Positions 1 to 13,837 of a DNA stretch of 13,837 nucleotides are shown piece after piece. The DNA is from a bacterium. Its GTDB lineage: Bacteria; Zixibacteria; MSB-5A5; GN15; FEB-12. The stretch lies in assembly GCA_043811375.1 (NCBI GenBank), contig JBDRNJ010000080.1:1-13837 (forward strand), read 5' to 3'. The position numbers were made by a program, and so were the translations under genes. The first letter of the stretch is position 1; each line of letters starts with the position of its first letter. Below the pieces are notes generated by a model that worked only from the letters and a program-made list of their open reading frames with translations, did no database searches and was not told where the DNA came from.

Positions 1-662
1 TTCTCCATCAGAGCATGACCCATGAATGCCAGCCGGGATTCCTTGCCTTTCCCCTTACGATACAACCGGGCATCCGGGTCAGTCGTGGACTCATGAGTAT
101 CATTGCGACGCTTCTCACCATGAAAATCTACCGAACGATTATGACCACCCTCAGAGGAAGAATCGTGGCCGTCGTCCTTCGGACGAAAACTCTTCATCGA
201 GGCCCAGGCGTCAATCAATGTCCCGTCTACCGTGAAATGCTCGTCCGATAAAAGACCAGCTTCTTCCGCCCGAGAAACAACACTCGAAAAAAACGCACCC
301 GCCAGATCAGACTCCAGAAAACGATCACGGTTCTTCGTAAATGTCGAATGATCCCAAACCACATCATCCATCGACAAACCCACAAACCAACGAAAAAGCA
401 TGTTGTAATCCAACTGCTCCATAAGCATCCGCTCACTGCGAATCGTGTACAATACCTGAAGAAGCAAGGCCCGAAGAAGACGTTCCGGCGCTATCGAAGG
501 TCGACCAGTATGGGAATACATTGAGGTCAACTCACCTGATAAACCGGCCAGAATCCGGTCTACCATCCGACGAATCGAACGTAATGGGTGGTCCTCGGGA
601 CCCCGGGATTCTAAGGATACATAACTGAACATCGCCTGCTGATCATCATCGGTGCCGCGCAT
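1..662 (-). CDS. IS5-family (DUF772 + DDE) transposase, N-terminal ~220 aa; runs off the window
   Basis: Not in the ORF track because it has no stop in the window. Manual translation from ATG 662 gives MRGTDDDQQAMFSYVSLESRGPEDHPLRSIR...GRPSIAPERLLRALLLQVLYTIRSERMLMEQLDYNMLFRWFVGL...VWDHSTFTKNRDRF...HFTVDGTLIDAWAS...NDTHESTTDPDARLYRKGKGKESRLAFMGHALME. The frame is open throughout. Confidence 0.92.
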   Translation of the reverse strand, partial: MRGTDDDQQAMFSYVSLESRGPEDHPLRSIRRMVDRILAGLSGELTSMYSHTGRPSIAPERLLRALLLQVLYTIRSERMLMEQLDYNMLFRWFVGLSMDDVVWDHSTFTKNRDRFLESDLAGAFFSSVVSRAEEAGLLSDEHFTVDGTLIDAWASMKSFRPKDDGHDSSSEGGHNRSVDFHGEKRRNDTHESTTDPDARLYRKGKGKESRLAFMGHALME

Positions 663-757
663 TGCTGGACCCTCTCATATGGAGATCGTTTTGATCCCCA
701 ACAATACCCCAATGATATATAAAATTCAGCTAAAATGAGGAGTTTTTCAACAGCCTG
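1..757 (-). mobile_element. Insertion sequence (IS5/IS1182-type DDE), left end; truncated by window start
   Basis: Transposase ORF on the minus strand. The end reads CAGGCTGTTGAAAAACTCC inward from 757 (IR-like) and abuts CTAG at 758-761, a typical target tetramer for such elements. The other IR is outside the window, so the exact end is inferred. Confidence 0.8.
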
Positions 758-761
758 CTAG

Positions 762-770
762 TGGTATAAT
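762..770 (+). promoter_or_regulatory. Extended -10 element (TGnTATAAT), candidate promoter of the ATPase
   Basis: TGGTATAAT at 762-770 is a perfect TATAAT preceded by TGn. It lies immediately after the IS end and upstream of the ATPase starts (TTG 785, ATG 797, ATG 815). Confidence 0.55.
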
Positions 771-784
771 AGAGGAATATCTTA

Positions 785-3460
785 TTGAAACAGTGTATGA
801 GTGAAAATAAAACTATGAAGAACGACTGGCACTGTTTGTCTGCAGAACAGGTCTTTCGTGTTACAAAATCTTCCGCTCAAGGTCTTTCCTCCAAGGAAGC
901 GGCCACGCTCCTCTTGGAAAAAGGTCCGAATGAACTGGTAGAGAAGCCTAAGAGAACTCTTTTCGCGATGTTTCTTGATCAGTTCAAGGATTTCATGATT
1001 ATCGTGCTCATTGTTGCCGCAGTTATCGCCGGTCTGACCGGTGATGCGGCGGATGCCATTGCCATTGTGGTAATTGTCATCCTGAATGCCGCGATCGGTT
1101 TTGTCCAGGAGTTCCGCGCGGAAAAAGCGATGGCTGCGCTCAAGAAAATGGCCGCACCCGAAGCCACAGTGTTGAGAGATGGTTTGATGGCTACAGTACC
1201 GGCGTCCTCCCTTGTCCCCGGGGATCTGGTCTTTCTTGATACTGGGAAAATTGTGCCTGCCGATTTGCGGCTTACCGAGGCAGTCAACCTGAAAATGGAG
1301 GAAGCCGCACTTACCGGAGAGTCAGTCCCGGTTGAAAAGAATACCAGCGCAATTTTGGAGAAAGGTCTCCCGCTAGGCGACCGAAGGAACATGGCATACA
1401 AGGGCACTTTTGTGACCTATGGTCGCGGAACTGGAATTGTTGCGGCGACCGGGATGGCTACTGAGATCGGAAAGATCGCGAAAATGCTTCAGGACGAGGA
1501 CGAGGTAAAAACACCTCTTCAAAAGAGGCTGGCTCAATTTGGCAGAAATCTCGCCATCGCGATACTCGCCATATGTGCAATCTTCTTTATTGCCGGACTT
1601 TTGAGAGGTGAGGAGCTTATGCTCATGCTCCTGACAGCAATATCTCTCGCGGTAGCGGCAATCCCTGAAGCTCTTCCTGCGGTTGTAACAATTACTCTGG
1701 CGCTTGGTGCCCGCAAATTAGTGAAGCAAAATACGCTAATTCGAAAACTCCCGGCGGTCGAGACCCTCGGTTCGGTAACCTATATTTGCTCGGACAAGAC
1801 CGGTACGCTAACCATGAACAGAATGACCGTAGAAGAGTTGTACCTGGAAGGGAGTACATTTACAAAAAGTGAACTGAATAAACAGGCTCATGGTCTGGGC
1901 AATGATAGTATTCTATTAACGGCGATGGCCTTGAGCAACGATGCATCGATCGATAAAGATGGCAATATCATTGGTGATCCGACAGAGACGGCGATCTTTT
2001 CGCTTGCACGGAAGTGCGGCTTCGATAAAGGGATTCTTCAGAAAACATTCCCAAGAATCGCAGAATTTACATTTGATTCTGACCGAAAGCGCATGACCAC
2101 CATTCACCGATGGAAAAACGGAACGTATATTTCTTTAACGAAAGGAGCTTTGGAGTCTCTCTGTGAACTGTCCAGCCATACTCTGACGCTGGACGGCTTC
2201 AAGCCGTTCGACAAGAGCGCAATTCTAACGAGTGGTGAACGCATGGCGGCCGATGGTCTGAGAACGCTTGGCTTCTGCTTTCGACATTGGGACAAACTAC
2301 CTGATAACTTAACTCCGGAAATCGTTGAGTCAGGACTCACCATGTTGGGAGTTGCGGGGCTGATGGATCCGCCTCGAGAGGAAGCGGAAGAGTCGGTGGC
2401 CCTGTGTAAATCTGCCGGCATCCAGCCCGTGATGATAACCGGCGATCATCCGGCGACGGCCATGGCTGTGGCCAAAAGAATCGGAATCGTGGATAATGAA
2501 TCGGAAGTGGTTATAACAGGTTCCGAACTCGAACAAATCTCTGATCAAGAGTTCGACGAGCGCGTGGAACAAATTCGTGTCTACGCGAGAGTAGCTCCGG
2601 AACAGAAATTACGGATCATTAAGGCTCTTCAAGATAGGGGTCAATATGTCGCCATGACCGGAGACGGGGTTAATGATGCACCATCCCTGAGAAGAGCAAA
2701 CATCGGTGTCGCGATGGGTATCGCAGGAACAGACGTATCAAAAGAAGCCGCCCATATGATTCTCCTGGATGATAACTTTGCGACGATTGTAAAAGCAGTA
2801 AAAGAAGGGAGGCGCATCTTTGACAATATCCGCAAGTTCATAAAATATACAATGACGAGTAATTCAGGAGAACTTTGGACATTGTTCCTTGCTCCATTCT
2901 TAGGACTGCCAATTCCTCTATTGCCCATTCACATTCTGTGGATCAATATCGTAACAGACGGTCTTCCGGGTCTTGCCCTCGCCGCGGAGCCGGCAGAACG
3001 TGGAGTCATGCAGAAACCTCCAAGACATCCCCAGGAAAGCATATTTGCCCATGGTCTTGGAGTTCACATAATCTGGGTTGGACTTCTGATGGGTCTTGTA
3101 ACCATAGGTTCTCAGAAGTACGCGATCAGCGCTGGAATTGATAACTGGCAGACGATGGTGCTCACTGTGCTGTGTTTGAGTCAGTTGGGACATGTCCTTG
3201 CTATCAGATCAGATAGTGAATCCATTTTCAAGCGGGGGCTACTATCAAATAAACCTCTTTTGAGTGCGCTTATATTTACCTTTGGTTTACAGATGGCAAT
3301 AATATACATACCATTTCTGAATCCTATTTTTCACACGGCACCGTTGACACTCAAAGAACTGATTATCACTCTTGCTCTTTCATCGGTAGTGTTCTTTGTG
3401 GTGGAGGTAGAGAAATTTGTTGTAAGAAGGAATTTTAGGAACAGAGAGAATAGAACATGA
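785..3460 (+). CDS. Cation-translocating P-type ATPase, type II (probably Ca2+-transporting, PMR1/SERCA-like)
   Basis: Motifs: TGES (A domain), AIPEALP (TM4), CSDKTGTLT (phosphorylated Asp), KGALE, MITGDH, ARVAPEQK, MTGDGVNDAP, TM5 TSNSGE, TM6 LWINIVTDGLP. About 890 aa with a ~10-TM layout. The true start may be ATG 797 or 815. Confidence 0.95.
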   Translation: MKQCMSENKTMKNDWHCLSAEQVFRVTKSSAQGLSSKEAATLLLEKGPNELVEKPKRTLFAMFLDQFKDFMIIVLIVAAVIAGLTGDAADAIAIVVIVILNAAIGFVQEFRAEKAMAALKKMAAPEATVLRDGLMATVPASSLVPGDLVFLDTGKIVPADLRLTEAVNLKMEEAALTGESVPVEKNTSAILEKGLPLGDRRNMAYKGTFVTYGRGTGIVAATGMATEIGKIAKMLQDEDEVKTPLQKRLAQFGRNLAIAILAICAIFFIAGLLRGEELMLMLLTAISLAVAAIPEALPAVVTITLALGARKLVKQNTLIRKLPAVETLGSVTYICSDKTGTLTMNRMTVEELYLEGSTFTKSELNKQAHGLGNDSILLTAMALSNDASIDKDGNIIGDPTETAIFSLARKCGFDKGILQKTFPRIAEFTFDSDRKRMTTIHRWKNGTYISLTKGALESLCELSSHTLTLDGFKPFDKSAILTSGERMAADGLRTLGFCFRHWDKLPDNLTPEIVESGLTMLGVAGLMDPPREEAEESVALCKSAGIQPVMITGDHPATAMAVAKRIGIVDNESEVVITGSELEQISDQEFDERVEQIRVYARVAPEQKLRIIKALQDRGQYVAMTGDGVNDAPSLRRANIGVAMGIAGTDVSKEAAHMILLDDNFATIVKAVKEGRRIFDNIRKFIKYTMTSNSGELWTLFLAPFLGLPIPLLPIHILWINIVTDGLPGLALAAEPAERGVMQKPPRHPQESIFAHGLGVHIIWVGLLMGLVTIGSQKYAISAGIDNWQTMVLTVLCLSQLGHVLAIRSDSESIFKRGLLSNKPLLSALIFTFGLQMAIIYIPFLNPIFHTAPLTLKELIITLALSSVVFFVVEVEKFVVRRNFRNRENRT

Positions 3461-3552: not shown

Positions 3553-3781
3553 TTGTGACCAAATCGTGACCAGAATGGTGTCACGTTATTTGGTGTTATT
3601 GGGAGTTATTGCAGGGCGGACGGGGGTTCAAGCAAAGAGACCCCTCTGGCCGTTCTCGTAACTGCTTAATTGTCAATAAATCACATGAAGTGGAGGTGGG
3701 GAAATCGAACAGGCATCGCCTGCCTGACGCCCATACTCGCTTTGTGGCACAAGGACTTACACCCTATTGTGACGAAATCGT
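3553..3781. repeat. att-like repeat copy A (left arm + tmRNA/tRNA 3'-end core + right arm)
   Basis: Left arm TTGTGACCAAATCGTGACCAGAATGGTGTCACGTTATT from 3553. Core GTGGAGGTGGGGAAATCGAAC at 3690-3710. Right arm CCCATACTCGCTTTGTGGCACAAGGACTTACACCCTATTGTGACGAAATCG. 3561-3590 matches 12841-12870 at 29/30 positions. Confidence 0.9.
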
Positions 3782-3818
3782 AGTGTTCTCCAATGCCAAC
3801 AGCCATGAACCTGTCTGA

Positions 3819-4943
3819 TCACCATTCCCAAAACCAGGTGGCATTGTCTGTGTAGTATTTGATATAACGTGCAGTGCCGGTCGCTGAGTCGGCTGTTGCA
3901 GTCAAAACCGAATCGTAACCCACCGGATTCAAGTATACCTGAACAATTTCATCATCGTTGGACTCGTAGTTAAATTCGCTTACCAAAGGCGCCCCAAAAC
4001 GAAAAAGGTTCTTTGCCATGTAGCTCTTGTACTGGACAGGGTCATGAGGCGTACCGTTGTAATCAAGGTCGTCGTTCACAACCAACGAATCACCGTTCAC
4101 CAGGGCTTCACGCACCTCCCATGGGCTTAAGAGTACCCCACTCTTGTTCGCGAAATAGCCATCATAGGTTGGATCCATGTACAACCACTTTTCCAGTGAA
4201 TCCGACCACATCATATTCACTACGTGGGCTTCCGTGTCCTGCTTGTCCTGAGGCAGGCAAGTAAGATAGCGTGACTTCAGCCCCACCGCGAGGCAGGCCT
4301 CGTTGAGTACAATTGCCATCATGCGGCAGTTAATGCCACGTCCGGAATCGGCGCAGACTTTGAGAATGTTGAGTGCGTTACGCGGTAATGGACCCGTGGC
4401 GCTGCCGTCGTGACGCACTGCCGTATGTACCCATCGAGTCAAGTTGATCGCGCGGCTTTCATCGGATCCATGACCGGCAATACTATCGAGATTGTACATT
4501 TCGCGGAATCGTACAAGGTTGGAATCATCAGGAGATGAATACTCGAACGGTCCTATCTCGGTCACCGGAGTATCGCCGAATGATGCGAACTCACGTAGTA
4601 TGGCGACTCTCTCATCCAGGTTGTCGTCAGTCCTAAGAAATGCCATTATGAGGTCGAGAGTTATCGACGGACCCTCTAAGACAATGGGTACGAACGGAAT
4701 GGTGTTGTATAAGACCAGCGAATCATCTGCTGTATAGAGAGTCAGCAATTTGGCGTCCCAAATCCGAAGGGTGTCGTGATTGTTCAGGGCACTCAGTGGA
4801 ACTGAGTTGCTCTGACTGCCTGAGGAAATTCTCAGAGTGTCGGCTGGCAGCTTCACGTGAAGGCTATTTTGAACCCCCGAGGCCTGGCCGGCAGCCGTCA
4901 TATTGCACGCTGCAACCAGGAACAAAACTAGATATCTTATCAT
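3819..4943 (-). CDS. Transglutaminase-like (Cys-His-Asp) domain protein, secreted or lipoprotein
   Basis: Catalytic triad pattern GINCRMMA...HVV...W...WLYMDPT. Start reassigned from 5030 to ATG 4943, which has an AGGAG SD upstream. This gives an N-terminal signal MIRYLVLFLVAAC with a possible lipobox (VAA-C). Confidence 0.85.
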   Translation of the reverse strand: MIRYLVLFLVAACNMTAAGQASGVQNSLHVKLPADTLRISSGSQSNSVPLSALNNHDTLRIWDAKLLTLYTADDSLVLYNTIPFVPIVLEGPSITLDLIMAFLRTDDNLDERVAILREFASFGDTPVTEIGPFEYSSPDDSNLVRFREMYNLDSIAGHGSDESRAINLTRWVHTAVRHDGSATGPLPRNALNILKVCADSGRGINCRMMAIVLNEACLAVGLKSRYLTCLPQDKQDTEAHVVNMMWSDSLEKWLYMDPTYDGYFANKSGVLLSPWEVREALVNGDSLVVNDDLDYNGTPHDPVQYKSYMAKNLFRFGAPLVSEFNYESNDDEIVQVYLNPVGYDSVLTATADSATGTARYIKYYTDNATWFWEW

Positions 4944-5074
4944 ACGTCTACTCCTGTAGGAAGTCGGGTGAATAAACTCCGCCCGGAATACCAAGACAAC
5001 ATGGACTTGGTTGCGTATACGCATGGACACTGTGATTGTTTCCCTGTGCGATAATATGCAACAAGTTTATTTGC

Positions 5075-5160
5075 TGGAGGTGGAGAAACGAACCCCATAC
5101 TCGCGTTGTGGCACAAGGTCTAACACCGTATTGTGACCAGATTGTGACCGTTTTTCGGCC
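5075..5160. repeat. att-like repeat copy B (core + right arm only)
   Basis: TGGAGGTGGAGAAACGAACCCC (5075-5096) followed by ATACTCGCGTTGTGGCACAAGGTCTAACACCGTA-TTGTGACC-AGA-TTGTGACC-GTTTTTCGGCC. No left arm is visible. Confidence 0.9.
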
Positions 5161-5264
5161 TTCTCAGAGTAGATTGACCTTCCCCCCTGTATCGTGGTCC
5201 TGCTGAACACACGACTGAATTCCATTATCATGCATTTCATGGTATCATTATATTGCTGTCACAA

Positions 5265-5293
5265 TGTAACAATCAGCAAGAATCGTAGTCTTA
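5265..5293 (+). promoter_or_regulatory. Candidate ECF-type autoregulatory promoter
   Basis: TGTAAC (5265-5270), 17 nt, GTCTTA (5288-5293), directly upstream of the sigma ATG at 5302. The AAC...TCT spacing matches sigmaE-type promoters. Confidence 0.4.
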
Positions 5294-5301
5294 GAGGTTA
5301 G

Positions 5302-5874
5302 ATGAGAAGCTATAACCAGCAACACAACCGCTTCTACGAACTTTTGGAGCCGGAGTTGCCGCGCCTGCAGGCGTTTTGTCAGAAGCTGACCGGCGACCCT
5401 GAAACAGGTAATGACCTCATGCAGGACGCCCTGTATGACGCCTGGAAGGGTTTCGGACGCCTTCGACAGGCCATGGCTTTCAAGTCCTGGCTCTATCAGA
5501 TCACGGTTTACCGGTACCGGACGAATCTGAGGAAGTTCAAGAAGCGGGTAGACTCGACTCTGCCGCTGACTCACGATGTCCCAGACGAAGCACAGTCGCG
5601 CCTGCAGAGTGCTCGCGACAGACTGAGCCTCGCAATGACATGCCTGTCGGCCACAGACCGAGCGCTGGTGACACTTCATGAACTGGAAGGATGGTCATAT
5701 TCGGAACTAGCAATGATGTTCGGCAGCAACGAGGGAGCGCTGCGGACGCGACTTACACGCTGCCGACGCCGGATGCGAGAGACGTTGCAGAAGCATATTG
5801 AACGAACGAATGAGGATTCATTCACAATCGGAGTACGCCAAAAATGGTTTGTCGTGAAGCAAAGAAGAAGCTGA
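5302..5874 (+). CDS. ECF-subfamily RNA polymerase sigma-70 factor
   Basis: 190 aa. Region 2 reads NDLMQDALYDAW...FKSWLYQI. Region 4 HTH reads LHELEGWSYSELAMMFGSNEGALRTRLTRCRRRMR. It overlaps the downstream anti-sigma gene. Confidence 0.93.
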   Translation: MRSYNQQHNRFYELLEPELPRLQAFCQKLTGDPETGNDLMQDALYDAWKGFGRLRQAMAFKSWLYQITVYRYRTNLRKFKKRVDSTLPLTHDVPDEAQSRLQSARDRLSLAMTCLSATDRALVTLHELEGWSYSELAMMFGSNEGALRTRLTRCRRRMRETLQKHIERTNEDSFTIGVRQKWFVVKQRRS

Positions 5875-7169
5875 TTAGGCTCGCGGATGGCCTTCTGGCC
5901 ACCGATGAAGAGAACGCTCTGCGAGAGCACTTGAAGGAGTGTCCGAGCTGTGCGCGATTGGCTTTGGCGGAAGAGTTGCTAACGCACGACATTGAGCAGA
6001 TTCGTGCCGTGCATGTGCCTCATCCGATGACTATTAACCAGATTCGTGAAGAGATCGCCGCTCGCGAGAGAAACCTTAGGAACACGAATATAGGAGTACG
6101 AATCATGCGACAAGTTAGTGACACAGTTTATAGAAAGCCGCGGCTCAGTCTGGCGACAGCTGCGCTATTCATGCTGCTGCTGGCAAGTGTCTTGGTGCCG
6201 GTAAGAACGGAGCAGCCGGTCGGATATGAAGTTGCCTTCGCGGCGCCAGCCAGCGGCCTGATGCTGATTCAGGAAAACGCCGAAAAGATGCTGGCGGCGC
6301 TGGACATAGATGATGCCCTTGTAGAGGTCAGCGAAGCCGACTCCGAAATCGAGTATAGAATCGCGCCGCTGAAGGATTCCGCCCAGGTGCGGAGGCTGAT
6401 TGCGGCGCTCGATTCGCTCGGAGGTCGGCGGGTTCGGAGCACAGTAGCGCCAACCGAATCCAAGGACCGGACAATCTGGCAACTACTACTCAACGATTCC
6501 CGGCCTGCAACCGATGCCTCACCCATATATGTTCATACCGAAAAACGCGCTAGTTCTGCTACCATTGACCTCAAAAAGAGATTCAAGGACGACTTCATCC
6601 TGTGGATGCCGGTCGGCGATCAAGCAGGTGACAGCCTGCGCGGTCTATTGCTGGACAGGCAAGGGGACAAGACGAACATCCAAATCGTCGGCGAGCGTGC
6701 TGGCACGTCCACCGATGATTGTGGCTGGCATCAATACCTGAATAACTCGGTAATGCATACCCAGACCCCTGATGGGGAACAGGGGACCTTTAACCTTTAC
6801 GAGATCGAGGATGTACGCAAGCTGGAGAAGATGGGCTACAACTTTGTGACGATGACATGGGACACGCCGGGGCAAGTTCCCATCCCCGGCATGGGACCCA
6901 AGTTGAACGAGATCAATCCCAAAACATTCTCCGAGAAGACTATTATCGAGTATATGGTCCCGCAAGCGTATGAAGTCCAGTTACAGATATTGGACAAACG
7001 CGGGCGCGAGATCCGCAACCTACTTCAATGTATGCCGCTCGCCGGGATATATCATGTCACCTGGGACGGGTTGGATGCCGACGGCAATCCGGCCAAGCCG
7101 GGGACATACTTGTGCCGGTTCATAGCAGGGGATTATGTGGAGACTCAAAAGATAGTACTCAAGCGTTAG
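5844..7169 (+). CDS. Zinc-binding anti-sigma factor (zf-HC2) with one TM helix and a C-terminal FlgD-Ig/T9SS-type-A-like domain
   Basis: N-terminal C...DG.L...HLKECPSC (HxxxCxxC). TM segment LSLATAALFMLLLASVLVPV. C-terminus IEYMVP...VQLQILDKRGREIRNL...AGIYHVTWDGLDADGNPAKPGTYLCRF. GGAG SD before ATG 5844. Confidence 0.85.
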   Translation: MVCREAKKKLIRLADGLLATDEENALREHLKECPSCARLALAEELLTHDIEQIRAVHVPHPMTINQIREEIAARERNLRNTNIGVRIMRQVSDTVYRKPRLSLATAALFMLLLASVLVPVRTEQPVGYEVAFAAPASGLMLIQENAEKMLAALDIDDALVEVSEADSEIEYRIAPLKDSAQVRRLIAALDSLGGRRVRSTVAPTESKDRTIWQLLLNDSRPATDASPIYVHTEKRASSATIDLKKRFKDDFILWMPVGDQAGDSLRGLLLDRQGDKTNIQIVGERAGTSTDDCGWHQYLNNSVMHTQTPDGEQGTFNLYEIEDVRKLEKMGYNFVTMTWDTPGQVPIPGMGPKLNEINPKTFSEKTIIEYMVPQAYEVQLQILDKRGREIRNLLQCMPLAGIYHVTWDGLDADGNPAKPGTYLCRFIAGDYVETQKIVLKR

Positions 7170-7172
7170 CCC

Positions 7173-7244
7173 TGTAGGGCAGGTCTGTCTTCAAACCTGC
7201 CGTTTTCCCCAAAAAGGCGGATTCGAAGACGGATCCGCCCTACA
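7173..7244. repeat. Inverted doublet of GTAG-family REP sequences (REPIN-like)
   Basis: GTAGGGCAGGTCTGTCTTCAAACCTGCC (7174-7201) and an inverted copy GGCGGATTCGAAGACGGATCCGCCCTAC (7216-7243). Each has a 5' GTAG and a perfect 7-bp stem. Confidence 0.8.
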
Positions 7245-7255
7245 ACTGGACTACA

Positions 7256-7365
7256 TGGTGGAGGTGGGAGGAATCGAACAGGCATCGCCTGCCTGACGCC
7301 CATACTCGCGTTGTGGCAAAAGGACTTATATCCTATTGTGACCACATTGTGACCGTTTTCTGGCC
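7256..7365. repeat. att-like repeat copy C (best-preserved tmRNA/tRNA 3'-end core + right arm)
   Basis: 7256-7279 reverse-complements to G-TTCGATT-CCTCC-CACCTCC-A-CCA (T-loop, 3' T-stem, 3' acceptor strand, discriminator A, CCA). It is followed by the shared right arm with TTGTGACC at 7336 and 7347. Confidence 0.9.
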
Positions 7366-7402
7366 GCCGGTTGGCGTCGGACGAGGTCACACCAACCGGC
7401 GG
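7364..7402. other. GC-rich hairpin between convergent transcription units
   Basis: Perfect 11-bp inverted repeat CCGCCGGTTGG / CCAACCGGCGG. There is no U-tract 3' of the stem on either strand, so it is not called as an intrinsic terminator. Confidence 0.6.
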
Positions 7403-7460
7403 GAAAAGGAATCTTACAAAGAATCGAGGTGATCACCCCGATATTCAAAGCCAAAGCGGT

Positions 7461-7676
7461 TCAATACCCCAATTCCTCTTCGAAAGCATCCGAATCGAGA
7501 TCGTCCTCAAAGTCAAAGCCACTGGTTTTATTCCGTGAAATGGATCCGCCGACCTCGAATTCGTGATCGCAGTCAGCACATACGTATAAATCGATGCCTT
7601 CCTCAAATGAGTCCTGAAGCAGCACATCGCTGCTGTTACAACGTGGGCACTTTCTGTTCTTCTTTGAACGTCCCAT
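7461..7676 (-). CDS. Small Zn-ribbon protein (CxxC...CxxC) with acidic tail
   Basis: 71 aa: CPRC-x19-CADC, basic N-terminus and D/E-rich C-terminus. GAGGT SD upstream of ATG 7676. Confidence 0.7.
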   Translation of the reverse strand: MGRSKKNRKCPRCNSSDVLLQDSFEEGIDLYVCADCDHEFEVGGSISRNKTSGFDFEDDLDSDAFEEELGY

Positions 7677-7746
7677 TGCTACACCTCTCTGAAACTGTTA
7701 ATTTCCTGACGTCACTTCTATGACGGATTAAGGTTTGTCGAATTGT

Positions 7747-9084
7747 TCATGATTTCTGTATACCACTGTCTGGTAGCATGGGTAACTCCGCGCACACCGG
7801 AAGTGGTTTGATAAATTCCTGCCGGAGGCTATAAGTGTATGCTCCCTGGTTCGGAATGAGCAAGACATCGCCTTCCCCTAAACTCTCACCGAAGTAGCCG
7901 TATCCCCAGATGTCGTGTGGAGTGCATAGCGATCCGGCCACCAGACATTCGTGTTCGTAAAGGCTCGGCCGGGTCAAGTTTATTACGGGAAAATAATCTG
8001 TCTCGAACCGTTCCCATCCCACGGCATTCGTGCCACCGTCGGTAATGACTATTTCTGCCGACTTGACGTCGGTAACGGTAAGGAGAATATGCATGGCGTC
8101 ATTGCACAACCATCGGCCAGGCTCGAGGCAGATAGTGCAGTTCATGTCTTTGGGCAAGTGTCTTTTCAACGCAGCAGAGATTTGGGCCGCGAAATCGGAG
8201 ATGAAGCAAGCCGATTTCTTATAGTGACTAAGGCCTTCAATTGTGGCCTCACCCAGTGCCGATTGAAGTACGCCCGAGGGCGTAGCCCCCGGTTGGAGCC
8301 ATTCACCCGGTTCCGGCCAAAAACCTCCCCCAATGTCGAGAAACTTGATGCTGTTCCGATCCGTTTTGTCCAGGCCTCTCAGCCCGGCACCCAGACGGCC
8401 AATGAAAACGACTTGCGCTTCAGGATTGAAATTCCAGCTGAGATGAAACTGAAGTCCGCACAGGTCAACCTGTTCGCACTTGCGTGCTTCGTGGAAAAAT
8501 GACTGCAGTCTGGCGAGCGGTATACCGAATTTTCTCCAGATGCCGGTGTCATCCGCCGCGAGCCGCACCCCGGCGCGGACCAGAACCTGCGCCCGTTTCG
8601 CGGTCTGTTCCAGTTTTTCCAACTCGCTGAAACTGTCAAGGAGAACGGTTACTTTGTCAGCGTGTTCTACGGCGAGCTCCAGTTCGTCCGGTCGCTTGCC
8701 GGGACCACTGAACACAATATCCCGGGCGCCGCACTCGAGAGCGGTCTCCAGTTCCAGGCCGCTTGAAACGTCCAGTCCGAACCCTTCTTGCACCAGGGTA
8801 GTCGCGATAGTCGGATGACTATTACTCTTCAGAGCATAGTAGATCCGGAGATCGGGTAGAACGGCCGCAAAAGCATTCCGGAATTGTCGAGCCTTGTTAT
8901 TGATAGCCTCCGAGTCAATTACATACAACGGCGAGCCATTGCTCTCAATGGCCGCCAGGAAGGCATCTCGTCGATCAAGGAATGATCGAACAAAGTGTCT
9001 GAGCTCCTGGGCGTCAAGCCGTGGGATTTGGTGATGGAGCAGCTCGGCGGCTTGCATTATGGTACCCAGCGAGCCTTTGGTCAT
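7747..9084 (-). CDS. Fold-type III PLP-dependent decarboxylase (Orn/DAP/Arg decarboxylase superfamily; substrate uncertain)
   Basis: Motifs: YALKSN (PLP Lys), DVSSGLE, FSGPGK, KFG, LDIGGGF, EPGRWL, GSLCTPHD, GAYTYS. The start is probably ATG 9084 or 9057 rather than 9174. Confidence 0.9.
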   Translation of the reverse strand: MTKGSLGTIMQAAELLHHQIPRLDAQELRHFVRSFLDRRDAFLAAIESNGSPLYVIDSEAINNKARQFRNAFAAVLPDLRIYYALKSNSHPTIATTLVQEGFGLDVSSGLELETALECGARDIVFSGPGKRPDELELAVEHADKVTVLLDSFSELEKLEQTAKRAQVLVRAGVRLAADDTGIWRKFGIPLARLQSFFHEARKCEQVDLCGLQFHLSWNFNPEAQVVFIGRLGAGLRGLDKTDRNSIKFLDIGGGFWPEPGEWLQPGATPSGVLQSALGEATIEGLSHYKKSACFISDFAAQISAALKRHLPKDMNCTICLEPGRWLCNDAMHILLTVTDVKSAEIVITDGGTNAVGWERFETDYFPVINLTRPSLYEHECLVAGSLCTPHDIWGYGYFGESLGEGDVLLIPNQGAYTYSLRQEFIKPLPVCAELPMLPDSGIQKS

Positions 9085-10369
9085 GGTATTGTTCCACATT
9101 GATAATAATCTTCTGTCTAATATCGTCACACTGCCGGCGATGATTAACGTCGGTTCGGGATTCGAAAATGACATGTCCCAGCAACCAGGAGTCGTAGTTT
9201 TCGGGTGGGACGGATATCACATGTCCCGGGGCGTACTTAATAAAAATTCCCTTCACCCGCAAATCCTCTGAGAGCCCACTGTAATTCACATCAGCAAGCA
9301 CGCCGCTGCGCATCGATAAAAAACGCATGCCGATATGCTCTTTCGACTGGTGCGCGGGAGGAATCTCGCACTTGCCTCCTTCGGCAAAGTCCAGAGCAAG
9401 TCCAATCGTATCAAGCCCACAACTGCATCGGATCAGGGGAGGCAGACAATCACCACCGACCCTTGGTGTTAACTCCAAAAAGACTAACTCGTTCTCGTTG
9501 ACCATGAAGTCTACCATGCAAATGGCACGCGTGAGCCCAAGTGCCTTTGCTGCGTTCCGAAGCCTCTCGGTGAGTGTTCCGCAGGTCACCCCTGCGGGTA
9601 GCTTTGCGGGGACCACGTAAGCCATAGTCGTTCCAAACGGCAGAGCATCGCCGTGAAGCTTTTTTGCTACCCGGATCACACTTACATTATCATCAGCTAT
9701 TATAAAGTCAGCGCTATACTCTCGTCCTTTGATGAGCTCTTCTACCAGTATAGGCTGGTCAACAACGGACCCGCCCGAATGCCCGGAACCGGACGCATAC
9801 AGCGGTGACTGTTGTCGGCTTTGCAGACCATCCTTGATCGTTCGAAAGGCCGCTCCCAAATCATTCTTGTCGTGGCATTGAAACGTTAGTTCACTGCCGC
9901 TTCCGGTGAGCGGCTTGAGCACGACAGGACCACCAAACTGTTCGATGAGCCTGATTACCTGCCATCCAGAATACACCAGTTCGACTTTCGGGCAGCGAAC
10001 CCCATACTCGGCCCATCTCTTCTTTGTAAGAAATTTATCCCGAGATACTTGCACCGATTCCACCGTGGGGAAAGGCAGATCGTAATACTGCGCCAGGCTG
10101 GCCGCTAGACCCAACCATTCACAATCGTAGCAGGCCACTCCCGAAAGGCTCTGGTTCGTTCTTTGCAGGTGCTTTTCCAGCGCGTTCAGAACATCCCCTT
10201 TGTCAGCGAGATGGCAGACAACCTCACTGGTGTGGTCGGGCGCTGTCTCTGTCGAGCCAATTCGCTTGGCCGGGTCCGTCAGGAACAGAGCTCGCCCTGG
10301 ATATCGCTCATGGATGTGGGCGATATAGTCCGGTGTGGTACCTACTACCAGGACACGGCGATCAGACAT
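9014..10369 (-). CDS. ATP-grasp ligase (L-amino-acid-ligase-like)
   Basis: Motifs: RDKFLTK, VVLKPLTGSGS, LVEELIKGREYSAD, VDF...VFLELTPRVGGD. The start overlaps the upstream GNAT stop by 8 bp (ATGTCTGA). Confidence 0.9.
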   Translation of the reverse strand: MSDRRVLVVGTTPDYIAHIHERYPGRALFLTDPAKRIGSTETAPDHTSEVVCHLADKGDVLNALEKHLQRTNQSLSGVACYDCEWLGLAASLAQYYDLPFPTVESVQVSRDKFLTKKRWAEYGVRCPKVELVYSGWQVIRLIEQFGGPVVLKPLTGSGSELTFQCHDKNDLGAAFRTIKDGLQSRQQSPLYASGSGHSGGSVVDQPILVEELIKGREYSADFIIADDNVSVIRVAKKLHGDALPFGTTMAYVVPAKLPAGVTCGTLTERLRNAAKALGLTRAICMVDFMVNENELVFLELTPRVGGDCLPPLIRCSCGLDTIGLALDFAEGGKCEIPPAHQSKEHIGMRFLSMRSGVLADVNYSGLSEDLRVKGIFIKYAPGHVISVPPENYDSWLLGHVIFESRTDVNHRRQCDDIRQKIIINVEQYHDQRLAGYHNASRRAAPSPNPTA

Positions 10370-11360
10370 GTGGGGCTCCCCTTATGCCTTGCCACCATAC
10401 AGTCGGAGAAGAGTAAATGGGGAGGTGAACCTTCTCTCTGGTCACCGATCTGCCATCCCCCTCAATTTTGTAGAGCGGCGCCGGCGTCAGGTGAAAGAGG
10501 GGCTTCCAATTGAAATCACCACAGAGAAAATCGACGCTGTCCAGTTTCTCTTCGCAGGCATAGGTGATGTGGTACATGTTGATAAGTTTGGCAATTCCGC
10601 GAAATCTCTCATCAGTACCACCGGCCAGCATAGTAAGCATGCCGTTGTAAAGGCTACCCATGTCCACAGCCGCCGGTTCACCGTCCACTATCACGGTTAC
10701 CATTCGTAGCAGGTTCCGGTTGCGTAATAGATGCATCAGTGAGCGGAAACTCTCCAGGAAGCGCTCATCACAGAAGTACGACAGCCGACCGAATCTGCTG
10801 CGGTTCATCTCACAGAGCGATTCGAAGTCCGTCGACTGATCGATGCGCCATTCGACTGTGTGATGGTTCCAGGCGGCCAGTTCCTTCTGGAGTTTCTTGG
10901 CGGTCTTGTGCGAGAAGGCTTCAAAGTATCGATCTACATCGTAGCCGTAGGTGGCAGGTATGAAGAGATACCCTACTTCATCTACGAGTTCGTCGGGGCC
11001 GCTCCAGCACCCTTCCTTTCGCAGGTATCGGAGCTGGTAGGGTCCATCCAGACTGGCCAGCATGGTGTAGAGGATGGCGCTGCTGTCGGCGATGATTCTG
11101 TTTTGCTCCAGCCAGGTTTTTCCTTCCCAGGTTTCACCGGGAAAGTAATTGTACTGGCTGATGTCCTCGTTCCAGCTAAGAGGCAGAAACCCTACTACCC
11201 TGCCGTCCTCCGCAGCCACGACAAAGCGCGGCGAGTGATTATAGTGATCGTGAAAACAGGCGCGCACTTCCCAGAGATCGGACACCAACTCGCCCGGCAT
11301 CAACTTCTTCCAGAGGTCTCGACATTCCCCTATGTCGGTTACCGTTTGGATCCGAAACAT
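10362..11360 (-). CDS. GNAT-fold protein, FemAB/CelD-BcsL-like (Acetyltransf_6-like)
   Basis: Two-lobed GNAT pattern: FVVAAEDGRVVGFLPL, YFEAFSHKTAKKLQK, VIVDGEPAAVD, GIAKLI...ACEEKLDSVDFLCGDFNWKPLF. ATG is 2 nt after the SpeD-like stop. Confidence 0.75.
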   Translation of the reverse strand: MFRIQTVTDIGECRDLWKKLMPGELVSDLWEVRACFHDHYNHSPRFVVAAEDGRVVGFLPLSWNEDISQYNYFPGETWEGKTWLEQNRIIADSSAILYTMLASLDGPYQLRYLRKEGCWSGPDELVDEVGYLFIPATYGYDVDRYFEAFSHKTAKKLQKELAAWNHHTVEWRIDQSTDFESLCEMNRSRFGRLSYFCDERFLESFRSLMHLLRNRNLLRMVTVIVDGEPAAVDMGSLYNGMLTMLAGGTDERFRGIAKLINMYHITYACEEKLDSVDFLCGDFNWKPLFHLTPAPLYKIEGDGRSVTREKVHLPIYSSPTVWWQGIRGAPHV

Positions 11361-11362
11361 CG

Positions 11363-11827
11363 CTAGCGCCTCAGGCTCACGTGCGTACTGCAGCGCGAAC
11401 CGCCAAAGAAACTGACCGCGAACTCTTCAACCACTGCCGGGTCGTACGGTTTGCAGCTGAAGACATCCAGATATGTAGTGTTGCTGGCGTTGGCAAAATG
11501 GGCCGAGATCAAAGACGTCTCTATCAACTGGGTCATCGAAAACCCGGCGACACGCTCGTCTTCGCCAAAATTGACTACCACGCATTCGCCGAAACGCTTC
11601 ATCTCAATCAGGTCACAAAGTTCATGAACAAAGCGCTTGATTGCCTCGGCATCGCGGATTGTTTCGGCATCACACTCGTATATATCGAAGCTGCAAGCCA
11701 GACCCCACGCCCCCTCAATATCGTCGGAACTGAACTGGTTCAATTCCCGGTAGGCGGTCAGCCGCGTCACCGCGTCCCTGACAGCCTCTCCGGCCTCGAA
11801 TAATGGTTTCATAGTATTCTTTCCCAC
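11363..11827 (-). CDS. speD: S-adenosylmethionine decarboxylase-like pyruvoyl proenzyme
   Basis: Motifs: FDIYEC, GFSMTQLIETSLISAHF (pyruvoyl-Ser region), YLDVFSCK. Start reassigned to GTG 11827, with an AAGGAG SD at 11842-11837. The family call is solid; the substrate is not. Confidence 0.82.
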   Translation of the reverse strand: MGKNTMKPLFEAGEAVRDAVTRLTAYRELNQFSSDDIEGAWGLACSFDIYECDAETIRDAEAIKRFVHELCDLIEMKRFGECVVVNFGEDERVAGFSMTQLIETSLISAHFANASNTTYLDVFSCKPYDPAVVEEFAVSFFGGSRCSTHVSLRR

Positions 11828-12063
11828 TTGAAGAATCTCCTTAATTTCCAGATCCACAGGGCACACGGCCCTCCGTGGATTCAGACAATGTCTATTAGTT
11901 TCTAGTGGTTGTTGTTATCCTCTGTGAACCTTCCGCCAGGCTCATGGGACACGTGAATCAGACCCTTGAGCCTGAAGCCGCCTTCCCTGCTATCCGGTCC
12001 GCTTCTCCTTACACACTGAACATTGTTGGCGACAAATAAGTATCCTGAGATACTCGTTGACGG

Positions 12064-12711
12064 TTACGGTAGCGCTTCCTTTATAAAGCGCGCCAAACTG
12101 ACGACAAAGGCACTTCTTAGAGCCATAAAGGACCCATCAAGATCGTCCTCTTCAGATGCCACGCTGGCAAAAGAGTAGTAACCCGAGATGAATCCAGCAA
12201 GCGCATAGGCAAGTCGTCGAAGCCGCTCTTTGGAAATCGGTTTAGACAATGCCCCTTCGATCAACTCCTCTATGCAACTCAAATAGTTCAGGAAGGGGGT
12301 TTCAATTCCCTCGAGACTTTCGTTAAGCATGATGTCCGCCCGACCCTGATAGTACAGCACGAAGTCCTCCCAGCGGTTGCTGAAGAACTTGATGTGGGTG
12401 CCGATCATGGCATCCAGGACCTCGTTGATCTCAGTGTGAGAAGCGCAGTCCTCTTTCAAGGCTGCGACTAGCTCCTTGAGCAATTTCTCCATCATCAGAC
12501 GAATCATCTCGTCTTTGGCATCGAAATGGTAGTAGAAGCTGCCCCGGCCCACATCCGCCCGGTCGGTGATGTCCTCCACCGTTGTGGCGGACAACCCCTT
12601 TTCAGCCATGACGGTTTTGGCCGCAACCAACAGCTTCTTGCGGGTCTTGCCGTAGCGTCGTTGCTGACGTGTCTTCTGGGGCTTTTCTGTTTCATTATTC
12701 GCAGATATCAT
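12064..12711 (-). CDS. TetR/AcrR-family transcriptional regulator
   Basis: N-terminal HTH reads TRKKLLVAA...KGLSATTVEDITDRADVGRGSFYYHFDAKDEM; 215 aa. Confidence 0.95.
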   Translation of the reverse strand: MISANNETEKPQKTRQQRRYGKTRKKLLVAAKTVMAEKGLSATTVEDITDRADVGRGSFYYHFDAKDEMIRLMMEKLLKELVAALKEDCASHTEINEVLDAMIGTHIKFFSNRWEDFVLYYQGRADIMLNESLEGIETPFLNYLSCIEELIEGALSKPISKERLRRLAYALAGFISGYYSFASVASEEDDLDGSFMALRSAFVVSLARFIKEALP

Positions 12712-12722
12712 AACAACAACCT

Positions 12723-12772
12723 GACACTATCGTCTTTTTCGACTCTATCGTCAATTCCGACAGTTTAGTCAA
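12723..12772 (-). promoter_or_regulatory. Candidate tetR promoter with three GAC-N6-GTC operator-like palindromes
   Basis: GACACTATCGTC (12723), GACTCTATCGTC (12741) and GACAGTTTAGTC (12759) are spaced exactly 18 bp apart. They overlap a minus-strand TTGACG (12754-12749), 17 nt, GATAGT (12731-12726). Confidence 0.65.
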
Positions 12773-12840
12773 GAACTTTTTTTGGACTCTTTGATTTTTC
12801 TTGATTTTGCGTCACGATCTAGTTCACAGGCTCAGGGGAA

Positions 12841-13042
12841 AAATCGTGACCAAAATGGTGTCACGTTATTCAGTATTATTGGCAGATATAGACTTACGAA
12901 GGTGGGGGTGGAGGGTATAATACCCCCATCCGTCTCGTAACTTATTCTATGATAGTGAGTTAAGGTGGTGGAAGTGGGGAGCGAACCCCATACTCGCGTT
13001 GGGGCACAAGGAGTTACACTGTACTATGACCAAATTGTGACC
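12841..13042. repeat. att-like repeat copy D (left arm + core + right arm)
   Basis: Left arm AAATCGTGACCAAAATGGTGTCACGTTATT. Core TGGTGGAAGTGGGGAGCGAACCCC (12966-12989). Right arm ATACTCGCGTTGGGGCACAAGGAGTTACACTGTACTATGACCAAATTGTGACC. Confidence 0.9.
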
Positions 13043-13141: not shown

Positions 13142-13837
13142 TTACAGCAGTTCCTTATATCCCGCCCTGCGATAATCAATCTCACCCAAACCTTGTTGAG
13201 CGGCCAAAACGACATAGCTAATTTCACGCCCGGACTTGCCCACGAATTCACTCGCGCGGGAATCGGCGGCTACCTGATCCGTCGCACAAATCACGGAATC
13301 GCATATCATAACATCATCAAAAGAGCCACCGACTGGGCCATGTCGCATGAGCACGCGCGTGGCATCAACCACCGTCAGGGTAGGTCTGAAAAATGCAGCC
13401 AGGTCAACAATAGCCTGGTCGAGTTGGTCATGCAGGCGCCTGCGATCACCCCCGATCGCTCCGAAGAAATTCTTCATCGATGCAGTGCCTAATGCCAAAT
13501 CATGATGTTTTGCTATTGGCATGTTGATGAGGCGATCAACCTCAAAGACATACTTGAGAACCGGCCAATTGTTAATGAGCCGGCCATTAAGATCAGCTTC
13601 GATAAAATCGCCTTCATTGAGAAATACGATCCTTCCGCCGTTTTCCTCGACAGCGTCCTTGATTCCAGAGCGAGAAAACACTTTCCGCGGATATCGGGCG
13701 CCGGAGTTATCGGTCACTATTATATCTGTTGCACCAGCCATCTTGCACTGGCGTGTCATTTCTCCGACGAGAACGGGATTTGTGGTAACACCTTGTTCCG
13801 GTACTCTGGCAAATGCGGCATTCGGCTTAAGGAGAAG
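13142..13837 (-). CDS. DUF362 domain protein (putative Fe-S associated), 5' end outside the window
   Basis: The frame stays open to the window edge: LLLKPNAAFARVPEQGVTTNPVLV...INMPIAKHH...ASMKNFFG...FRPTLTVVDA...DQVAADS. This fits the DUF362 KPN / PxxKxH / KNxxG pattern. Confidence 0.85.
   Translation of the reverse strand, partial: LLLKPNAAFARVPEQGVTTNPVLVGEMTRQCKMAGATDIIVTDNSGARYPRKVFSRSGIKDAVEENGGRIVFLNEGDFIEADLNGRLINNWPVLKYVFEVDRLINMPIAKHHDLALGTASMKNFFGAIGGDRRRLHDQLDQAIVDLAAFFRPTLTVVDATRVLMRHGPVGGSFDDVMICDSVICATDQVAADSRASEFVGKSGREISYVVLAAQQGLGEIDYRRAGYKELL

Follow-up and report, generated by a model that had tools for sequence, protein, structure and literature searches.

Four ssrA-like repeats on a Zixibacteria contig, probably left by recombination between small foreign gene blocks

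What are four short repeats, all in one orientation, doing between the complete gene modules of a small contig from the Zixibacteria? The contig, C80 (GenBank JBDRNJ010000080.1, assembly GCA_043811375.1), was analyzed over its entire 13,837 bp, henceforth the window; its source genome, G000, amounts to 3.56 Mb in 92 contigs. A sequence-only reading had described the repeats as attachment (att) sites derived from the 3' end of a tRNA or transfer-messenger RNA (tmRNA) gene, and all four were indeed found in a single orientation at the positions it gave, with cores at 3691, 5075, 7256 and 12966 (copies A to D). In all likelihood they are scars that recombination left between short groups of foreign genes. 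More specifically, we consider it probable that they are att junctions of non-autonomous cassettes, inserted serially at the T-loop of ssrA, the tmRNA gene, by a tyrosine integrase encoded elsewhere.

Read on the minus strand, each repeat consists of a doublet, a short arm, and a core reaching from the ssrA T-loop to the acceptor end, in that order; the core quoted earlier, GTTCGATTCCTCCCACCTCCACCA, is the minus strand of copy C. In copies A and D a long arm follows, some 125-140 nt in length and closing with a second doublet, and the proposed division into full junctions (A, D) and half junctions (B, C) was upheld, as was the general att anatomy of the tyrosine-integrase type. Junction A comprises the long arm (3553..3690; 78 bits; perfect doublet 3553-3571, repeat 3582-3602), the core (3691..3710, by its match to ssrA), a 21-nt insert in the T-arm (3711..3731) and a short arm with degenerate doublet (3730..3785, by repeat alignment). 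Junction B (5075..5149) has a core at 5075-5093 and a short arm with perfect doublet (5131-5149) but no long arm, and junction C (7256..7354) has the best core (7256-7279), an insert (7280-7300) and a short arm, again with perfect doublet (7336-7354). Junction D consists of a long arm (12841..12965; 98 bits), followed by a degenerate core and a short arm, delimited by repeat alignment (12966..13042); its doublet is degenerate like that of A, and the second arm common to these two covers 49 nt at 88% identity. All four junctions lie on the minus strand. The 21-nt insert in cores A and C, which recurs in a copy on contig C51, is a correction to the earlier description. A hidden Markov model (HMM) of the short arm, trained on related copies including some from G000, scored the four at 56-78 bits, compared with at best 7.5 bits in 200 shuffled windows and no match in the reversed genome; thus, the four copies are not due to chance.

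The donor had been given as tmRNA or tRNA-Ala. All 24 core positions match the ssrA gene of G000, whereas tRNA-Ala mismatches at 6 of 24 and was rejected. No tRNA or tmRNA gene was found in the window and, since the window is the whole of C80, the donor cannot be on this contig; ssrA, which had been predicted at higher coordinates than the window, is located on another contig, C81.

Does the repeat follow ssrA in other genomes? Junction D was matched in 19 of 40 relatives, and the short-arm pattern in 59 of 285 genomes of the phylum, with zero control matches; many of the named records carrying the arm are labelled Zixibacteria and others are labelled differently. When ssrA and arms shared a contig, the arms were observed no more than 100 kb behind ssrA, on the strand of ssrA as predicted, in 12 of 14 testable relatives (G023, G024, G027, G008, G014, G002, G035, G012, G162, L055, L059 and L076), a count that excludes two loci repeating already counted DNA; three genomes (G029, G100, G104) could not be placed. 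In these 12, a 3' fragment of the target is directly repeated behind the intact gene. Among 17 distinct ssrA 3' flanks, nine carried the full long arm, three a partial one and five none, and arms on both sides of the core, one of them fused to the target, are represented by those nine flanks together with A and D. A flank with the full long arm appears attL-like, as the model requires. A dispersed element resembling a miniature inverted-repeat transposable element (MITE) or a repetitive extragenic palindrome (REP), containing the ssrA end by chance, could account for copies on six contigs of G000, some away from ssrA. However, copies were clustered and co-oriented in every mapped multi-copy region, the long arm is joined directly to intact ssrA, and terminal inverted repeats are absent from the four repeats. 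The scattering in random orientation that the sequence-only reading had named as fatal to its own proposal was not seen; copies are co-oriented within contigs and clustered behind ssrA in relatives, which refutes the MITE- or REP-like repeat, and we give it hardly any credence.

The collected junctions also bear on where the strands are exchanged. Of the short-arm junctions, 189 in total, the acceptor end is preserved in 117, TTCGA is absent from 43, and 29 end early; 12 of the last group end 7-8 nt into the core, as expected for a crossover in the T-loop heptamer with some use of secondary sites. Junction sequences of this kind point to such a crossover, with some insertions at secondary sites. 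The long arm contains a second site resembling the ssrA T-arm, in which the flanks are conserved and the spacer, about 7 nt long, varies. Its start is 37 nt past the core in 20 of 22 cases among the matches listed, and likewise in D (12907-12931). This second core-like site might bind additional integrase, represent the relic of a core or belong to a terminator. A promoter and terminator scan at D gave nothing above chance and called no terminator there, leaving a terminator role of the long-arm hairpin unsupported. One locus, L063, from a record with the label KSB1, has a cassette inserted at the second-core-like site behind tRNA-Gln, which suggests that this site may itself serve as a target and that the family may extend to other phyla, as judged by record labels. 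Short GC-rich inserts of differing sequence were noticed at the T-loop of cores in the window (3711-3731, 7280-7300) and at four other loci (L045, L088, L110, L272); 12 of 150 junction cores were classed as such, and the inserts probably inactivate the site. Three gene-less units were found, along with several core-less doublets and fusions.

If the repeats delimit cassettes, then the intervals between them should behave as units. Those of the window are mostly 1-6 kb long, and their gene identities were confirmed by Pfam scan. Unit A-B carries a transglutaminase-like gene (3819..4943, minus strand; PF01841), unit B-C an extracytoplasmic function (ECF) sigma factor with its anti-sigma (zf-HC2, FlgD-Ig; 5302..7169, plus strand; Pfam), and unit C-D an operon for a pyridoxal phosphate (PLP)-dependent decarboxylase, an ATP-grasp ligase, a GNAT protein, an S-adenosylmethionine (AdoMet) decarboxylase-like protein and TetR (7747..12711, minus strand). 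C-D is the only unit in the window with both arms, A-B and B-C keeping one each.

The ECF unit has a counterpart with 94.7% identity over 1918 bp in the ssrA array of G008, which belongs to a different genus; considering that the remaining DNA common to both genomes is only 64-74% identical, and ssrA 85%, units evidently move, and they are shared across genera. Homology of the two copies begins at the short arm, and G008 retains the long arm at the place where the window has a hairpin (7172..7247, by alignment); half junction C is therefore likely secondary, as far as this alignment can tell. The hairpin belongs to a REP-like palindrome family dispersed over more than 15 other places in G000, with a 98.7% copy on C65, and an Rfam search of 7170-7250 returned only chance miRNA-type matches.

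Other units tell a similar story. A unit encoding a 1535-amino acid protein is common to G029, G002 and L073 from junction to junction, and is the first behind ssrA in one genome but internal in another. An RRM unit occurs twice in G000 at 89% identity, arm to arm, and once more, on C68, in a copy that has no arms. The P-type ATPase gene to the left of A (785..3460, plus strand; Pfam), which ends at long arm A, has a homologue of 87% identity in G120, where it immediately follows an arm junction, and one of 82% in G087, where a long arm comes after it. To the right of D, a DUF362 gene (13142..13837, minus strand; Pfam), whose 5' end lies beyond the contig, matches L153 together with junction D at 78% DNA identity over 884 bp, junction included. 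From these matches both genes are further cargo, and the array continues past both ends of the 3553..13042 interval to which it had been confined. Two window modules stand in reverse order in G104 with degenerate arms between them. At E<=1e-60, a search of 284 other genomes of the phylum gave no DNA match to the transglutaminase gene, and a 91% piece of it was present in public run X2. The operon of C-D gave no NCBIfam equivalog above cut-off, and may make a small molecule derived from a polyamine or an amino acid. Its best homologue, in G012, is 77% identical over nearly the whole interval and lies 40 kb behind ssrA without flanking arms; in nine relatives where its region was inspected, arms were nearby only in G104 and, weakly, in G168. 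The claim that module boundaries coincide with the cores held for several shared units and was not borne out for this operon, which usually lacks flanking arms.

Which enzyme, then, could have made these junctions? None of the 11 window proteins scanned is a recombinase, as had been noted. A metagenome scan added at least 127 loci, full flanks being fetched for 80, and tblastn of the DNA on the cargo side revealed no tyrosine recombinase for any of 145 distinct short arms, of which 99 had 600 bp or more on that side. A Pfam scan of 89 of the 98 nearest open reading frames found no recombinase family, the other nine being mostly scanned earlier or duplicates, and 15 further array or operon regions gave no integrase match. 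G000 itself has 10 tyrosine and 9 large serine recombinases, none inside a unit. The cassette-type units observed are thus free of recombinases, and no integrase gene was found inside such an island.

An alternative that takes this absence at face value is that the units are classic cis-mobilizable elements (CIMEs), i.e., stumps of once-autonomous ssrA islands that lost their integrase and are now mobile only in cis with an adjacent island or not at all. The published definition fits in outline (PMC7563491, PMC5704250), and unit C-D, with both att ends and cargo only, has no integration or transfer genes. Four arrays (G023, G024, L076, L093) do contain ssrA islands with an integrase directly behind the core; many junctions are decayed, and the gene-less units resemble microCIMEs. 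Nonetheless, those integrases are part of a different kind of island, one whose doublets read TGTGCC on the ssrA strand, and its arms differ from, and are oriented opposite to, those of the cassettes. Moreover, no integrase or remnant of one adjoins any cassette-type short arm among those scanned, and single units were found at different positions with different neighbors, with arms intact and close to the cargo genes. Origin as classic CIMEs was accordingly judged unlikely. The TGTGCC-type ssrA islands also collapse between doublets, leaving gene-less stubs (L055, L272; G105:1696508).

A serine recombinase similar to DsiB might instead serve the array, as in Dehalococcoides, and the nine large serine recombinases of G000 would be at hand for it. 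However, no serine recombinase was found on the six array contigs of G000 or inside the arrays of G027, G014, G023 and G029, and the DsiB module (PF07508), by which an ssrA genomic island of that kind would be recognized, had no match inside the arrays of five genomes. A serine recombinase stood beside a truncated arm in 1 of 127 metagenome loci (at least 127 were scanned). In general, arm doublets and a 7-bp crossover in the T-loop are typical of tyrosine integrases, and these features leave a serine enzyme highly improbable.

For a tyrosine integrase acting from elsewhere, a candidate source was noted. The arm doublet occurs upstream of the start codon in 22 of 30 tyrosine integrases of a mostly tRNA-Ser-targeting clade, in 11 of them exactly, and the target of this clade has a similar T-arm. 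With the arm doublet in common, the enzyme likely, if tentatively, comes from or close to this local tRNA-Ser/ssrA integrase clade. An integrase search of viral contigs gave 12 loci, the best of which, at 43%, lacked the doublet, and this lead was rejected; the strict arm pattern had no match in viral contigs, nor the long arm in plasmids. Short (217-241 amino acids) proteins of the tyrosine-recombinase family were seen away from the arrays at G000:C27:6822, G000:C4:162058 and G023:C3:6270.

These elements can be assembled into a provisional scheme of circle excision, T-loop integration and accretion by an enzyme acting in trans. The excised cassette circle would carry the short arm, the ssrA end and the long arm, together constituting attP. 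Recombination of attP with ssrA (attB) within the 7-bp T-loop would rebuild ssrA, now joined to the long arm, and leave the short arm and core at the far end; the following insertion would then displace the older units, generating full junctions such as A and D. Half junctions such as B and C might arise by loss of the long arm, as the comparison suggests for C, by entry at a secondary TTCGATT or at the end of the array. Recombination or slippage between the directly repeated doublets would yield gene-less and fused units. More speculatively, one-armed units might be excised in cis by attB-like x attP recombination and return via attR x attL.

A number of observations weigh against this scheme or against the candidate clade. 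In G000, ssrA is not followed by an arm; the end of C81, which is 279 bp away, consists of another repeat. Copies also occur far from ssrA in G105 (up to seven, 830 kb off) and G101 (one, 286 kb), and counts of arms are biased as the loci were fetched via the short-arm pattern. Homologues of the ECF unit in G223 and G224, and of the ATPase in G140, G035 and G133, have no clear arms alongside, while homologues of the C-D operon in 48 other genomes of the phylum mostly lack flanking arms where checked. No circle junction or empty site was found in the contigs of four public runs, which are from other strains, public runs containing at most 16% of the sequence words; a single arm-to-arm joint (3761 to 5130; 27 nt on the short side) was rejected, being explained by repeats. 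As to the enzyme, the two clade integrases of G000 itself (on C83 and C84) carry the variant TGTGCC doublet; a clade match at E<=1e-60 was present in 76 of 285 genomes, and the arm-rich G100, G029, G105 and G107 were not among them. Relative to the islands of the clade itself, the cassette arms are reversed on the tRNA strand, and their short arm measures about 39 nt compared with about 87 in those islands. The doublet also occurs near unrelated integrases in viral contigs (integrase match at 13 of 31 loci), so that it does not pin the enzyme.

Much of the difficulty in G000 may lie in its assembly. The genome has 13 short-arm copies on six contigs (C80, C51, C45, C8, C71 and C83), co-oriented within each contig, along with five clear and two partial long arms. 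C51, C45, C8 and C71 end in insertion sequence (IS) repeats, and C80 starts in one, which makes it plausible from the contig ends that the copies form a single array broken by IS repeats. The IS at the start of C80 is the 5' part of an element with a DUF772 transposase (1..765, minus strand; Pfam PF05598), which we take to be IS5-like; it breaks the contig directly upstream of the ATPase cassette, and its end recurs at the ends of C8 and C89. C80 could not be connected with ssrA by way of contig ends, as these are IS repeats or unique sequence. The expectation of ssrA anchoring was thus borne out in relatives and not in G000, for which we infer that the window array is linked to ssrA. On C51 (1-1215), an IS3-type element is inserted within the long arm of a junction.

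A few copies stand apart from ssrA (in G105, G101 and on C83 of G000). The copy on C83 lies near a tRNA-Ser integrase island; behind this island is a K_trans (K+ transporter) unit (L006; G000:C83:15500-17800) that has a short arm, part of a long arm and just 6 nt of the core. On C84 (97624-97752; L007), the first portion of a long arm stands behind tRNA-Leu(CAG), and in the metagenome locus L204 a short arm is joined to a tRNA-Leu-like end; from these two junctions, tRNA-Leu is likely an occasional second target.

Is the array, then, comparable to an integron? Integrons are arrays of small, diverse and exchangeable gene units, and the sequence-only reading had called the present array integron-like. 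An integron-like platform would entail a dedicated recombinase, folded single-stranded sites and expression set by position. The units are indeed small, diverse and co-oriented, and the reversed modules of G104 count in its favor. However, in G000, a genome 95% complete, nothing passed the TIGR02249 cut-off for IntI, and core plus short arm folded no better than shuffled sequences (z -0.67 to +0.25, five folds), on which grounds a folded, attC-like site was rejected; the long arm alone does fold (z about -3). Cargo genes are mixed in orientation, with 65 pointing to the short arm and 33 in the other direction, and the site consists of a tmRNA end and its arms. Lacking IntI and an attC-like fold, the label fails, and a genuine integron-like platform is very improbable. 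A broader proposal is that the array represents a phylum-wide cassette system kept for a purpose and not a set of decayed islands, with one standard attP (the mirror image of that in local integrase islands, its second core-like site placed exactly 37 nt past the core), hundreds of enzyme-free cassettes and an unlinked tyrosine integrase that excises, reorders and re-inserts single units, one-armed ones included. We regard this as conceivable but doubtful; if true, Zixibacteria would hold an integron equivalent made from phage-type att sites.

Probable insertion of cassettes by an integrase encoded elsewhere has consequences of its own. It would provide an uncultured sediment phylum with a route to trade accessory genes across genera, among them regulators, transporters, secreted proteins and small biosynthetic operons, and island finders that require an integrase would overlook it. 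As the sites are short and well conserved and candidate enzymes are at hand, dead relics and single-unit movement in trans can be directly told apart by experiment. No published description of this arm family was found in a search of open-access papers; arrays without integrase at ssrA are already in print, which limits the surprise.

Several known systems offer close parallels. In Dehalococcoides, ssrA islands stand in tandem up to 100 kb behind ssrA, bounded by approximately 20-bp copies of the ssrA end; 15 of them have no integration module and were proposed to be CIMEs, while 16 carry the serine integrase module DsiB (PMC3146451). The present array resembles them in its tandem integrase-less units behind ssrA, but has tyrosine-type arms and no cassette-type unit with a recombinase. 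Streptococcal CIMEs and microCIMEs are att-bounded, integrase-less units, with 1.2-13 kb of cargo or gene-less at 130-220 bp, in tandem at one gene, and are defined as decayed integrative and conjugative or integrative and mobilizable elements moving in cis (PMC7563491, PMC5704250); here, by comparison, no parent was found in the sample, one arm pair recurs throughout a phylum, and there are signs of single-unit transfer. The islands catalogued by Islander are marked at their ends by the target gene and its displaced 3' fragment, include a T-loop crossover class and have an attP of about 250 bp, but Islander demands an integrase per island and at least 2 kb, and would reject these cassettes (PMC4383910). 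Tycheposons of Prochlorococcus likewise build islands of cargo elements at tRNA and tmRNA genes, but carry integrase and replication modules (bioRxiv 10.1101/2020.12.28.424599). What distinguishes the present array is its mirror-image arms, the second core-like site and the absence of a parent element among the sampled loci. Overall, by these comparisons it appears to work like the accretion of CIMEs and ssrA islands and not like an integron, and belongs to an established class of islands that collect genes, here with a uniformity and a spread among genomes that are out of the ordinary.

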